Assembly (NCBI GenBank): GCA_016186435.1
Contig: JACPLQ010000008.1
Coordinates: 1-48,823, forward strand
DNA: 48,823 nucleotides
Origin: Candidatus Nomurabacteria bacterium
Lineage (GTDB): Bacteria; Patescibacteriota; Minisyncoccia; Phycocordibacterales; UBA9973
Reading direction: 5' to 3'
Part shown: piece by piece, positions 7,065-40,838 of the stretch
How the letters are laid out: each line of letters opens with the position of its first letter
Numbering within the stretch: position 1 is the stretch's first letter
Notes under the pieces: generated by a model
Seen by the model: the letters and a program-made list of their open reading frames with translations, nothing else
What the model was told of the DNA's origin: nothing
Databases searched by the model: none
Position numbers and translations under genes: made by a program

Positions 7065-7137
7065 CCCAGTACTAAAATTTTAAATTGTTAATAATATTGG
7101 TCATTTGTTTTTTTGTGAATTTAGTACAGGACATGTA
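7065..7137 (-). repeat. 73-bp element, copy 1 (entire atpF-atpH spacer)
   Basis: Minus strand reads TACATGTCCTGTACTAAATT...AAAATTTTAGTACTGGG directly followed by ATG. Confidence 0.85.
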
Positions 7138-7599
7138 TTATAAATTATTCAAATCGGGCTTCTCTTTAATTAATTTCTCTGTCGCGAGCATTGAAAGAGC
7201 TATGATTTCTTTCTTTGCTTCCTCAACCATTTTCACTTTTTCGGCTTCAAGCGTTTTTTTGCCATTTTCCACTACTGACGCTACTTCATTCTTGGCAGTT
7301 TCAAGCATTTCTGCTCTTTTTGTCTCCGCCTCTTTCTTGCCTTCCTGAAAAATTTTATTCGCTTCGGCTTTGGCTTTGGCGATAGCTGTGTTGTATTCTT
7401 CTTCGGTTTTAGCCAGCATATATGCGTTTGTTTTTGCATCGTCAACACCCTTGGCTATTTTTTCGCTTCGCTCGGCCATAAGCTTTGACAGAGGCTTAAG
7501 GGCAAAGATATACAGTACGGCAAACACAACTCCGAAATTTATCGCTTGGGCGATGATAATTTTCCAATCTATGTGAAATGTGGAAATGATTGAATCCAT
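7138..7599 (-). CDS. atpF: ATP synthase b subunit
   Basis: AQAINF TM anchor, KPL..ER..I and a coiled coil. Start set at MDSII. Confidence 0.95.
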   Translation of the reverse strand: MDSIISTFHIDWKIIIAQAINFGVVFAVLYIFALKPLSKLMAERSEKIAKGVDDAKTNAYMLAKTEEEYNTAIAKAKAEANKIFQEGKKEAETKRAEMLETAKNEVASVVENGKKTLEAEKVKMVEEAKKEIIALSMLATEKLIKEKPDLNNL

Positions 7600-7605
7600 G
7601 GTTTT

Positions 7606-7688
7606 ATTCTCCTCTTGAGGAGTACCCTTTAGGGGGAGGTGGACAAATACTTCCACCCCGCCCGAGGGGCACCCCTCAAGAGGGGAAT
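7606..7688. repeat. Inverted REP doublet (REPIN/BIME-like) between atpE and atpF
   Basis: Forward copy TCCACCCCGCCCGAGGGGCACCCCTCAAGAGGGGAA (7652-7687) and a diverged inverted copy at ~7607-7643. Confidence 0.8.
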
Positions 7689-7689
7689 C

Positions 7690-7899
7690 CTAGATAGAGA
7701 ACGCGATAACAAGGGCGTAAATAGCAATAGCTTCCGCGAATGCGCAGGCGAGAAGCATCGGCACCAAAATCTTGCCCGCCGCTTCCGGATTGCGTCCGAT
7801 AGATTCCATTGCTTTGGAGCCAATCATGCCGATAGCTATAGCGGGAGCGATAGCTCCGACTGCCATAACTACTGCCTTTCCCCAAAATTCTAATTCCAT
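7690..7899 (-). CDS. atpE: ATP synthase c subunit
   Basis: GRNPE loop and FAEAIAIY with the ion-binding Glu. Ala rather than Ser/Thr follows the Glu, suggesting H+ type. Confidence 0.97.
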
Positions 7900-7913
7900 A
7901 TGATTTTTATTTG

Positions 7914-38008: not shown

Positions 38009-38023
38009 AAACAAGGTTAAACC

Positions 38024-38380
38024 TTGTCCGAAAAAATGGAGAGAAAATTTTCCAAAATAAAGAACGACATTTTGGGCAAAGACTATTCCCTATCTATGGC
38101 CTATGTCAGCGAAAAAAAATCAAGAGAGTTAAATAAGAAATGGAGAGGCAAAGATAGGGCGACAAACGTCTTATCTTTTGCTTTGAGTAAAAATTTAGGC
38201 GAACTCATTCTTTGCAAGGCTGTAATCAAAAAAGAGGCGAAGGAAAAAAAATACGACAGAAATTTCCAAAATCTTCTCGGATTTTTAGTTATCCACGGCA
38301 TGCTTCATTTGAAAGGACTGGAACATGGAAAAAAGATGGAGCAGCTGGAGAAGCTTTATTGTAAAAAATTTAAAATTTAA
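38024..38380 (+). CDS. ybeY: rRNA maturation RNase YbeY
   Basis: LN..WRGKD.ATNVLSF and HGMLHLKGLEH motifs. Start may be the ATG at 38036. Confidence 0.92.
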   Translation: MSEKMERKFSKIKNDILGKDYSLSMAYVSEKKSRELNKKWRGKDRATNVLSFALSKNLGELILCKAVIKKEAKEKKYDRNFQNLLGFLVIHGMLHLKGLEHGKKMEQLEKLYCKKFKI

Positions 38381-38383
38381 CGA

Positions 38384-39298
38384 CTATCTAAAAATTTCTG
38401 TAAAAATATTTACTAGTTTTTCGTCAAAATTACTAGGTAGTTTTGTGTGTGAAATTTTCAGGTTATCTAAAACATTTTCAAATTTCTTGAAACCCCCATC
38501 GCTTCTTAACTCTACCCATTCCATGTTTAAACTATTTAGTTGCTTTTTGTTTGTATCTGAAAGTTTATCAGCAACAAACACTTTACTGTCTCGAGCTATT
38601 ACAGCATCGGCACTTTCAGGATTTCCTATACCCATTAACTTAACTTCGCATTTATATTGATTTTCACCTTGCACTAAATAAAAATCTATTTCTCTCTCAA
38701 ACTCGTCTTCCTCTAGTTCTTCACCTTTTATCTTTAATGAATAGTTAATTTCAGAGACTCCGTATAACTTGCAAAGTGTTTGCATTAATGGCTTTTCAAC
38801 ACGCTTACCCGCAGTACTCCAAGATCCCCCTCTTATAGCAGCTCTTTTTACTGCAAGAGTATTGATAACAATCAGACTTTCACTCACGTTCAAGTCAACA
38901 CTAACGCCCTTAAATTTAATTGTTAAGGTTAATTCTAGGTCGTGTTCTGTATCTACCAAACTTTTAATTGATTGATATAACAGATCATAATGTTCATCAG
39001 AGGCATCAATGACTATTTCTCTGGTTGAAGAATTAAACATATTGTGTATGGTCTTTTTATTTAGCCCGGAATTAATCGCTATATCATTAGTGGGTAACTC
39101 AGAATTAAGGAATTCTTTTTTATACCAATCAATAGTGATGTCTTGATTTTTAAATTTTGCATCAACAACTTTTTTGAAAAAATCTACTACAAATTGTAAG
39201 AACTGTGCATCTATTAAAGTAACTATTTCAATTCGATAGTCTTCCCCTTTCAATAATTTTTTGATTATATTTTTTGCTACTTGCTCTGTAATTGTCAT
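38384..39298 (-). CDS. Type II restriction endonuclease, CfrBI-like
   Basis: PD-(D/E)xK-type REIDF...CEVK, GNPESAD; translationally coupled to an MTase; AT-rich. Family name is from recall. Confidence 0.75.
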   Translation of the reverse strand: MTITEQVAKNIIKKLLKGEDYRIEIVTLIDAQFLQFVVDFFKKVVDAKFKNQDITIDWYKKEFLNSELPTNDIAINSGLNKKTIHNMFNSSTREIVIDASDEHYDLLYQSIKSLVDTEHDLELTLTIKFKGVSVDLNVSESLIVINTLAVKRAAIRGGSWSTAGKRVEKPLMQTLCKLYGVSEINYSLKIKGEELEEDEFEREIDFYLVQGENQYKCEVKLMGIGNPESADAVIARDSKVFVADKLSDTNKKQLNSLNMEWVELRSDGGFKKFENVLDNLKISHTKLPSNFDEKLVNIFTEIFR

Positions 39299-40710
39299 AT
39301 TGATTGCTTGGTTAATGAAATAAAATTCTGAATATCTACAAAATTAGGTTGATTGTTTTTTGAACTAAATAAACTGCTTCCCCTAATCAAATCCTCTTTC
39401 ATCCTATTAACATATTTTGGCTCTTTTTCAGTTAAAAAGAAATGCCTATCTAAATTAACCGCGGCAAGACCCAAGGTCCCACTCCCAGCAAAAGGATCGA
39501 AGATGAGATCATCCACAAAAGAATAATATTTAATTACTCTATTACATAGCTCAATAGGGAAAACTGCGCTATGCACTTTGTCAAAAGTAGGACCAATATG
39601 CCAAATGTTTGTTGTTTCATATTTATCTGCAACTTTACTTCTCTTTACTTTATCCCAACTGTACTGACTTATATTCCAATCAATTAATTTATCTGTCTTT
39701 TTTCTATAGACCATTATCATTTCTGAAACAGCATTTGGCTTGTATCCTAATGGTTTTCTGTGTTGTAAGAACCCAGCATTTCTATTCTTTACACTAGCTT
39801 CTGGCTTGACCCATACAATATCATCAACAAACTCCCACCCCATTTTTACTAAAATTGGATGAATATCATATGGGATTGGATATCTTTTACTTGAGTGTGC
39901 GCGGCTTATTCTTGGAATTATAATCGGCGAGGTATTTAAAATAAAAAATCTACCTTCTTTCGTAACCCTATGAACTTCTTTAAATACTTTTTCTAAAAAA
40001 TTTAAATACTCTTCGTAACTTTGATATATAGAATAATCTCGAGCATTATAATAAGGAGGAGAAGTGAAGGTTAAGTGCACTGATTCACTTGGAACGTGAC
40101 CCAGCGTTTCCACAACATCACCTTGGACAACTAAGTTTTTTAAATAATTTGGAAATTCGTCATGTTTTCCAGCACTATTTGAGCTATAATTAATTCCATT
40201 TATTTCTTTACCGATAACCTCTTTTATTAATTCATTCGGATGACTAATTAATTTTTTTAATTCTTGCTTAACCGAATCATTCTTTGAAAAAACTAACAAT
40301 CCTCTAATTGCCTGCATTACGACTTTTGGATCTTTGTCCGATAAAAGTTTTATCAAAGCTGGTATTGCTTTTTCATTTCTTAATCTTCCAATTCCCGAAA
40401 CAGATTCTCTTCGTACTTCTGTACTCTCATCCTGCTGTGCAAATTTAAGAAAAATTTGAAGAAGAGAAACATCCCCTATTTTGGCAAGATTTTTTATTGC
40501 AAGCAACCTTATATTTTCATTTTTATTATTCAGTAATTTTATTAATGGTTCTTTACTATCTCCATTTTCTAACCTGCCTAAATTTTCTAAAACATACACA
40601 ATAGAGCCATCATTCTTATTTTCAAAGAAAGAAGACAAAATTTCTGTGTCATTTTTTAAAATATCAATTTCGTCTTTATTAAACTCTTTTTGCAAAACTG
40701 CCCTGTTCAT
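39295..40710 (-). CDS. HEAT-repeat + amino-DNA methyltransferase (beta class)
   Basis: About 4 HEAT/PBS-like repeats (e.g. LIKLLSDKDPKVVMQA), then TSPPY before DPFAGSGT. Confidence 0.88.
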   Translation of the reverse strand: MNRAVLQKEFNKDEIDILKNDTEILSSFFENKNDGSIVYVLENLGRLENGDSKEPLIKLLNNKNENIRLLAIKNLAKIGDVSLLQIFLKFAQQDESTEVRRESVSGIGRLRNEKAIPALIKLLSDKDPKVVMQAIRGLLVFSKNDSVKQELKKLISHPNELIKEVIGKEINGINYSSNSAGKHDEFPNYLKNLVVQGDVVETLGHVPSESVHLTFTSPPYYNARDYSIYQSYEEYLNFLEKVFKEVHRVTKEGRFFILNTSPIIIPRISRAHSSKRYPIPYDIHPILVKMGWEFVDDIVWVKPEASVKNRNAGFLQHRKPLGYKPNAVSEMIMVYRKKTDKLIDWNISQYSWDKVKRSKVADKYETTNIWHIGPTFDKVHSAVFPIELCNRVIKYYSFVDDLIFDPFAGSGTLGLAAVNLDRHFFLTEKEPKYVNRMKEDLIRGSSLFSSKNNQPNFVDIQNFISLTKQSI

Positions 40711-40765
40711 ATGTCTAGATTATAACCCACTAAAGTGTAAAAAATCAAATATGTGGGCTTTTAAG

Positions 40766-40838
40766 TACCTGTCCCGTACTAAATTTTTGATTACGTGATA
40801 TAATTGCTGATATTAAAGTTTAAAATTTTAGTACTGGG
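40766..40838 (+). repeat. 73-bp element, copy 3 (before ftsA)
   Basis: First 30 bp identical to copy 2; ends AAAATTTTAGTACTGGG followed by ATG; internal TGA-TATAAT. Confidence 0.85.

Follow-up and report, generated by a model that had tools for sequence, protein, structure and literature searches.

Start codons occupied by a hairpin element, apparently mobile, in a Nomurabacteria genus without Shine-Dalgarno sequences

Why should three unrelated genes on one contig of a bacterial genome, atpH, rpsU, and ftsA, each begin directly behind a 73-bp stretch with the same two ends? The contig is JACPLQ010000008.1 of Candidatus Nomurabacteria bacterium (GenBank assembly GCA_016186435.1), and its positions 1 to 48,823 form the stretch analyzed here, referred to below as the window. 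The original prediction, made from the letters of the window, described three copies of 73 bp with conserved, mutually complementary ends, a variable middle, and an ATG immediately following, and all of this was borne out (Table 1). The copy ahead of atpH does fill the entire spacer, adjoining both the atpF stop codon (7138-7140, minus strand) and the atpH ATG, and the copy ahead of ftsA does contain an extended -10 motif. Two explanations had been offered, a MITE (miniature inverted-repeat transposable element) that creates or targets start codons and a portable translation-initiation module in a genome poor in Shine-Dalgarno (SD) sequences; these are not mutually exclusive. We consider it probable that the copies belong to a small noncoding family of hairpins in this Nomurabacteria genus, similar to MITEs and to the hairpin-forming doublets of repetitive extragenic palindromic sequences (REPINs), which is apparently mobile, seeks out start codons, and is transcribed as a leader. 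Its placement on start codons, which goes far past what chance would give, its gain and loss, and the conservation of its helix are demonstrated below; how it is transcribed, translated, and moved is proposed from them. The element is real and abundant, and it is apparently undescribed: no account of such an element was found in the literature, mostly in the form of abstracts, PMC12641178 and PMC11602168 included.

The genome to which the window belongs (G000; 706 kb in 29 contigs, 41% G+C, 98.75% complete) was searched with the 3' arm alone at up to 2 mismatches, which returned 22 matches on 12 contigs. An ATG stands directly after 21 of the 22, and both arms are present in 20 copies, whose lengths are 72 (4 copies), 73 (6), 74 (9), and 108 (1) nt; the copies of this genome thus neither lie mostly away from start codons nor vary freely in length. 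The genes behind them are ordinary and unrelated (fpg, rpsU, ftsA, atpH, metK, map, ftsW, mreB, pth, rpsM, ribE, ribH, sodC, purE, and others), and the N termini that follow resemble true starts, as in Fpg (MPELPEV...). Metagenome contigs were scanned with the 5' arm alone, so that the ATG plays no part in the query, and the 81 matches represent 77 unique copies, of which 74 adjoin an ATG (73 directly and 1 past a one-base arm variant). From the first A to the terminal GGG, these 77 copies measure 71 to 74 nt in 60 cases, 101 to 110 nt in 16, and 92 nt in 1. In two of the three copies without an adjoining ATG, a reading frame begins in the loop and passes through the 3' arm. Non-open-reading-frame (non-ORF) space in G000 holds 3,125 other ATGs, compared with 615 ORF starts, so a bare ATG target combined with survival outside genes could not place 96% of copies on start codons. 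The flanks are ordinary start contexts, with T at position -1 in 74% of cases versus 54% genome-wide.

In one-genome-per-species contigs assigned to Candidatus Nomurabacteria or Paceibacterota, the exact 19-mer of the 3' junction was found at least 119 times, and exact matches in the metagenome collection number at least 122. A phage vector was considered and rejected, the 19-mer having no match in viral contigs. A covariance model built from the 20 two-armed copies of G000 was run on 36 congeneric species and matched in 20, each having 1 to 19 matches, and in none of the other 16; across 24 other families of the order it returned a single weak case. A search of Rfam, carried to E values of up to 10 with five copies, placed no family on the element, and at the gathering score the window yielded two tRNAs only.

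The terminal inverted repeats, complementary arms of about 20 nt, fold together such that element positions 6 to 24 pair with the 3' arm plus the A and the U of the ATG. To count pairs, we used 87 copies from 21 genomes, namely, G000, 19 congeners, and G041 from a different family, with divergent subfamilies added on purpose. In the resulting 18-pair helix, 96.7% of cells are paired, and 10 of the 18 pairs vary on both sides (68 cells); no shuffle of 500 equaled the observed helix values, 1 of 500 did so for further pair types, and sliding the partner strand left at best 54.5% paired. Position 7 faces the first base of the start codon as UA in 80 copies, CG in 5, and another combination in 1, and where the start is GTG, position 7 is C. 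Subfamilies differ in their upper stems (GTACTAAA, GTTAGAAA, GTTAAAAA, and GTATTAAA among others), all of them with a partner strand to match, and the base motif ACYTGTCCCG...YGGG-ATG is constant across them. Of 158 copies, 150 fold better as the sense strand than as the antisense strand, an advantage that we judge to depend chiefly on a small number of conserved G.U pairs; the asymmetry of G.U over A.C pairs (162 versus 10) was set aside as weak evidence, since we judge it to stem almost wholly from one invariant G.U at the start codon.

Orthologous sites in related genomes differ in whether the element is present; loci of the unpublished genome G084 (one pth and one ftsA) and one truncated ftsA locus were left out. 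At pth only G000, 1 of 29 genomes, carries a copy, and in all 28 relatives the site reads as a -10-like hexamer, 6 to 7 nt, and the ATG; G000 has the same promoter, then the element, then the ATG. At atpH the site is filled in 3 of 30 genomes (G000, G010, and G032), and in the 27 empty ones the atpF stop mostly lies 1 to 10 nt before the ATG, the closest relative reading ...aataatttataat up to the start codon. At ftsA the element is found in 9 of 28 usable genomes, and in the 19 empty ones the frame of the upstream gene ybeY overlaps the ftsA start. At all three loci, a filled site differs from an empty one by exactly the stretch running from AC to GGG, with the boundary ambiguous by one A. 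The idea that the element creates start codons is therefore dropped, because empty sites already have the ATG at the same place, and the idea of a MITE that targets them fares well on behavior: the element is multicopy and noncoding, it is patchy among congeners, its sites are exactly empty where it is absent, and 182 copies precede 136 gene clusters. No target-site duplication goes with it, and no parent transposase was found.

Gain and loss do not follow a simple line of descent in every case. The nine ftsA copies form one lineage, since they share a loop of their own (GTGATATAAT...TATTAGA), and on a quick FtsA tree the filled state is scattered: 9 changes are needed, at least 3 of them forced by well-supported branches, with 10 forks unresolved. 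This pattern points to repeated seamless loss or allele exchange. Copies before folA, gatA, and nusG belong to different loop types in different genomes. In G000, the copies before map and ribE consist of the 3' arm only, and a congener has a full copy at ribE.

Several observations concern reading frames that enter the element. In G000 (C14:15587-16288) and at L399 (in G009), the upstream genes run into the element, RibE ending in ...AKYLSRTKFLSKINNH and YbeY in ...YLSRTKFLNK, so that the 5' arm encodes these protein tails. Ahead of map, the ORF seems to end inside the 3' arm with LKF-stop. In one lineage of long variants (L239, L274, L331, and L342, from metagenome contigs and congeners), the gene frame begins in the loop and crosses the 3' arm (K-I-L-V-L-G-L...), with ATT after the GGG; judged by its reading frame, the element has turned into coding sequence there. 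Apart from these, G000 contains divergent relatives with other arm sequences at C6:5819-5888 (before rpmB), C11:8354-8395 (12 nt before yidC), and C27:7785-7893, one of which, a mini-hairpin of 42 nt with a short loop, has no ATG abutting it. At the beginning of the S16 gene rpsP (C9:26860-27100) is a solo stretch resembling the 5' arm, TACCTGTCCCGTACTAAATT; the S16 frame has a TAA immediately ahead of ...IKNSTKSGKFLEILGTYNP, and its normal N-terminal portion is either absent or shifted to a different frame. Unrelated G+C-rich hairpin repeats also occur upstream of promoters in the genus (L368, L371, L372, and L388, upstream of pth in congeners, and C26:6721-6760 in G000).

The lineage into which these copies are set lacks an SD system. 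SD motifs form no peak upstream of 606 long ORFs of G000, their count never exceeding 10 of 606 at a single position, and 64 of the 606 have a -10-like hexamer beginning at -12 relative to the ATG, which leaves 6 nt before the ATG, the geometry of leaderless mRNA. No 16S gene was found in the G000 assembly, and in the two congeners examined in its place (L426 in G078 and L427 in G007) the 16S 3' end of both reads ...GCTGCTCGTGGAATAATTCAATT, with the tail ...TGGAATAATTCAATT, and lacks the CCTCC anti-SD motif. The genome had been called SD poor; the lineage in fact lacks both SD and anti-SD sequences. We also considered, and discarded, the possibility that the altered 16S tail pairs in a new SD-like manner, as complements of the tail show no positional enrichment before starts.

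Contexts were analyzed for the 186 unique copies with enough upstream DNA. In 107 of them a codirectional ORF stops 15 nt or less, mostly 1 to 5 nt, before the element, marking an operon junction. Among the remaining 79, a -10-like hexamer lies at -14 to -11 from the first A of the element in 32, and overall such hexamers peak at -12 from that A (29 of 191), the same distance at which they stand from leaderless ATGs. Because these distances match, we infer that at promoters the first A now lies where the transcript once began and that the element would make up the whole leader.

The loops differ in content. An ATG-started mini-ORF of at least 8 codons that closes with the 3'-arm TAG, 7 nt short of the ATG of the gene, is present in 53 of 194 copies, compared with 2 and 2 of 194 for ATG-started ORFs in the two other loop frames; most have 10 codons and the pattern M-x-x-I-I/N-N/K-N-L-K-F, and in the loop type to which they belong the frame is intact in 35 of 43 copies. 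An alternative 5' hairpin that would free the 3' arm, TGTCCCGTA with the loop TACGGGRYA, can form in 89 of 186 copies. Operon junctions (107 copies) have the mini-ORF in 46, the 5' hairpin in 46, and neither in 15, and other contexts (59 copies, with cases of upstream genes reading in excluded) have them in 5, 37, and 17, respectively. Counted by gene cluster, the mini-ORF occurs at 34 of 79 operon junctions versus 6 of 57 other sites (P = 4e-5). A frame opening at the YTG of positions 4 to 6 and running through the whole element was rejected: it reaches the stop codon of the arm in 18 of 194 copies, it is not the most open loop frame, and its long open stretch is due mostly to fixed arm sequence. 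The left end is ACTTG or ACCTG in 177 of 194 copies and ACATG in only 4, and no ATG is duplicated.

From these arrangements we infer how the element may be transcribed, translated, and moved. Its sites would all be of a single kind, the junction of base -1 with the start codon, in a host without SD sequences in which most transcription units would be leaderless and later operon genes would be translated through tight coupling of stop and start. At a promoter-proximal site its first A would fall on the old transcript start, making the element the entire 5' leader, and at an operon junction it would be the entire spacer. The RNA would fold as a hairpin of about 20 bp whose closing pairs take in the A and U of the start codon, and survival before essential genes would depend on an interior that keeps ribosomes reaching the masked AUG; that the loop variants bring them there is our reading of their sequences. 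Several routes can be envisaged. A ribosome finishing the upstream gene 1 to 5 nt before the hairpin would melt its base; the 10-codon mini-ORF of the loop, which crosses the 3' arm and ends 7 nt before the AUG, may relay ribosomes; the alternative 5' hairpin may keep the 5' arm away; and in the ftsA lineage a promoter in the loop may yield RNA that lacks the 5' arm. That the extended -10 in the ftsA loops is an internal promoter is probable, since GTGATATAAT or GTGGTATAAT is kept in all nine copies. A portable module for translation initiation, as originally proposed, is thus plausible: essential genes sit behind the element, which must for that reason be compatible with initiation.

The copies of the window illustrate these types (Table 1). 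In copy 1, element position 4 has changed to A, which creates an in-frame ATG and an ORF of 20 codons spanning the entire element, the second half of which (7072-7104) is the typical 10-codon mini-ORF of this loop type. Ahead of copy 2, the 11 nt between GATAAT and the element exceed the usual 6 to 7 nt. Near copy 3, a good promoter match on the minus strand at 40719-40748 (TTGATT, 18 nt, TATAAT) points away from ftsA toward a divergent gene of the leaderless type, and the copy therefore sits in a divergent intergenic region. Upstream of copy 2, at 37458-37531, contigs of the metagenome runs X2 and X3 have 39 other letters instead, which looks like a strain variant. Relative to the rest of the stretch covered, contig depth summed over four metagenome runs is 40 to 60 times as high at 32966-33626 and about 8 to 30 times as high at 48169-48800, with many loose contig ends at 33564-33601 and 48728-48761; short parts of these two stretches are common to many other organisms or repeats.

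Table 1. Element copies and associated features of the window, with the Y1-like genes of the same genome (G000)
Feature	Position	Strand	Remarks
Copy 1, before atpH	7065..7137	minus	73 nt; occupies entire atpF-atpH spacer; mini-ORF loop type; weakened upper stem; fold -12.0 kcal/mol, z -1.1
Copy 1 helix, 5' strand	7114..7132	minus	element positions 6-24
Copy 1 helix, 3' strand	7063..7082	minus	element positions 56-75; takes in A and U of atpH start codon
Copy 1 bridging frame MSCTKFTKKQMTNIINNLKF	7072..7134	minus	20 codons; from ATG 3 nt past atpF stop to TAG 7 nt before atpH ATG
atpH start codon	7062..7064	minus	in element-free relatives, 1-10 nt past atpF stop
-10-like GATAAT, with T ahead of it	37686..37691	plus	11 nt before first A of copy 2; likely rpsU promoter
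Copy 2, before rpsU	37702..37774	plus	73 nt; loop type permits alternative 5' hairpin (8/9 pairs); fold -22.3 kcal/mol, z -2.8
Copy 2 helix, 5' strand	37707..37725	plus	from fold
Copy 2 helix, 3' strand	37757..37776	plus	takes in A and U of rpsU ATG (37775-37777)
Copy 3, before ftsA	40766..40838	plus	73 nt; fold -21.8 kcal/mol, z -4.7; lineage common to 9/28 genomes at ftsA site, G000 included
Copy 3 helix, 5' strand	40771..40789	plus	from fold
Extended -10 TGATATAAT in copy 3 loop	40796..40804	plus	GTGATATAAT or GTGGTATAAT present in 9/9 ftsA copies
Copy 3 helix, 3' strand	40821..40840	plus	takes in A and U of ftsA ATG (40839-40841)
Y1-like genes of G000	C1:12234-12923, C18:4587-5237, C10:2262-2921, C26:17354-18034, C24:21617-22168		

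Other explanations of how the element works have to be weighed against a start-codon-seeking, leader-forming hairpin. The hairpin might serve as punctuation, with a host endoribonuclease, RNase III or another, cutting at the 3' base of the stem, freeing a leaderless or nearly leaderless downstream mRNA and leaving a protective 3' hairpin on the upstream RNA. Phage T7 RNase III sites and mitochondrial tRNA punctuation are analogues, G000 has one RNase III gene, and the stem of about 20 bp has an imperfection on its 3' strand 4 bp from the base; such cutting would explain the zero spacing to the AUG, the invariant base motif below a freely changing upper stem, and the tolerance of the element at both leaderless starts and operon junctions. 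Yet covariation keeps the first base of the start codon paired, for which cutting ahead of that base gives no obvious reason, the copies at map and ribE precede intact genes without a 5' arm, and the link between loop type and context is not predicted, so we hold this account to be doubtful; it concerns how the element works, and an element of this kind may still be mobile. More novel, and held to be rather unlikely, is a mobile adaptor for translation starts in cells lacking SD pairing, which would find starts by pairing of its 5' UGU or UGC with AUG or GUG, the displaced gene being kept alive by a cut at the hairpin base, giving leaderless mRNA, or by the mini-ORF relay. A portable promoter, in which the main effect would come from the loop -10 box and transcripts would start inside the element, has in its favor the TGnTATAAT kept in all nine ftsA copies and the TATAAT carried by long variants and by certain short loops. 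Within the most frequent loop type, on the other hand, C and T are equally common at the corresponding position (TACGGGGCA in 26, TACGGGACA in 13, TACGGGATA in 12, and TACGGGGTA in 7 copies), many copies already lie 6 to 7 nt behind an external -10 box, and a consensus promoter scan of the window did not flag the loop -10 boxes, which leaves this explanation very improbable.

Two further accounts were weighed. Under one, the element is a parasite at the level of DNA only, its hairpin acting as single-stranded DNA for an HUH/Y1-type or other structure-specific recombinase, with the RNA fold a tolerated by-product and the pairing of positions 5 to 7 with ATG or GTG serving target recognition in the manner of IS200/IS605 guide sequences, a principle known from IS608. 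Gain and loss are seamless without target duplication, compensatory changes maintain the helix, C at position 7 always faces G, and there are five Y1-like genes in a 706-kb genome, all of which would fit. A 3-nt target, however, cannot account for 96% of copies lying on true start codons, other hairpins stand beside the Y1 genes, whose occurrence does not track that of the element, selection at the level of expression is suggested by the way loop type follows context and by the retained promoter of the ftsA lineage, and the sense strand folds better than the antisense; we regard this account as unlikely, about on a par with punctuation by a nuclease. Under the other, the copies would be a conserved and immobile translational operator to which a single RNA-binding protein or small RNA binds, coregulating an unvarying group of genes. 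A conserved, bulged hairpin containing the start codon is what phage coat-protein operators look like, and the 3' arm resembles a CsrA motif from systematic evolution of ligands by exponential enrichment. The genes behind the element differ between species, as the number of clusters indicates, pth and atpH are filled in few genomes, 16 of 36 congeners have no match, and no Rfam family covers the element, all of which makes a host regulon very improbable, and a CsrA operator or leader in particular was rejected because the CsrA gene (PF02599) is absent from the nearly complete genome.

Several observations weigh against the mobile, leader-forming element that we favor. Filled and empty sites at pth, atpH, and ftsA show no target-site duplication, and no transposase with the ends of the element was found. 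No copy encloses a gene, and all 81 metagenome 5' arms have a 3' arm within about 110 nt. In the contigs of four metagenome DNA runs of one study from the same site, no joint skipping an element was found that would represent an empty-site variant; these contigs end at element copies. The alignment behind the helix statistics was fitted to the model, which favors structure, and copies from related genomes are not independent. Within its own loop type the mini-ORF has been lost in 8 of 43 copies, and the alternative 5' hairpin, tried as a feature of promoter-proximal sites, is not significantly more frequent there than at operon junctions (43 of 79 versus 46 of 107; P = 0.14).

The search for a mobilizing enzyme centered on Y1 transposases of the IS200 type or of the REP-associated tyrosine transposase (RAYT) type, of which G000 encodes five resembling them, with lengths of 184 to 229 amino acids (Table 1). 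Four have a leaderless-type promoter and the fifth, on C24, looks truncated at its start; those on C1 and C18 score 40 and 17.7 bits against an NCBIfam cutoff of 80. Short hairpins of their own lie on both sides of the genes on C10, C18, and C26, and the arms of the element stand beside none of the five. As a mobilizer this enzyme family was rejected, which also counts against mobility as we propose it: across 36 congeners, which have 0 to 11 Y1-like genes each, the genes and the element do not co-occur (matches/Y1 genes: 19/0 in G032, 4/0 in G036, and 0/11 in G003). No TnpB domain was found in G000, and its two tyrosine-recombinase matches lie on other contigs.

Known systems resemble the element in part. 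Correia/NEMIS elements of Neisseria, ERIC, RUP, and Nezha are short, noncoding, multicopy MITEs with inverted-repeat ends that are cotranscribed, form RNA hairpins, may carry promoters, and differ in presence between relatives. The element shares with them its small size, lack of coding capacity, copy number, inverted-repeat ends, and differences in presence. Such MITEs duplicate their target (TA in the Correia case), insert at various points between genes, and have parent transposases that are known or suspected; the element, in contrast, has no target duplication, lies on start codons in 96% of cases, and takes the start codon into its helix. As in REP/REPIN-RAYT systems, hairpin repeats of similar size are kept by structure in a genome with five weakly matching RAYT-like genes, but here those genes have other hairpins at their sides and vary independently of the element, and REPs lie mostly after genes rather than on start codons. 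IS200/IS605 elements leave no target duplication, are gained and lost seamlessly, form DNA hairpins, and choose targets by base pairing, and in the first three respects, and possibly the fourth, the element is like them; they differ in having a hairpin at each end and a left-flank target of 4 to 5 nt, whereas the two ends of the element pair together in the main hairpin, only part of the copies can form a separate 5' hairpin, and there is no TnpB. In ribosome-unmasking coupling, as from the MS2 coat gene to replicase or in plasmid rep leader peptides, a buried start codon is opened by a ribosome just upstream, and the mini-ORF ending 7 nt before the AUG recalls this; those cases are single, gene specific, and equipped with SD sequences, whereas the element is dispersed and movable in an SD-free lineage. 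An integron attC site was rejected as well, on placement and recombinases, as the copies are scattered before housekeeping genes and the two tyrosine recombinases are encoded on other contigs. The element works like a cotranscribed MITE or REPIN and like a coupling hairpin, yet it lacks what defines Correia-type MITEs, REPIN-RAYT systems, attC sites, Rfam families, and CsrA leaders.

Some consequences are practical. Gene callers and annotators of genomes of the candidate phyla radiation should expect leaders of this kind, and the elements break assemblies, as the contigs of the four runs demonstrate. If our reading is correct, a natural, portable cassette of 73 nt would be available for study, and SD-free initiation on an internal AUG, an open question for lineages of the leaderless type, would become directly testable. 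It would also mean that a selfish element has made the start codon itself its niche, one that would exist because these ultra-small bacteria gave up ribosome-binding sites.

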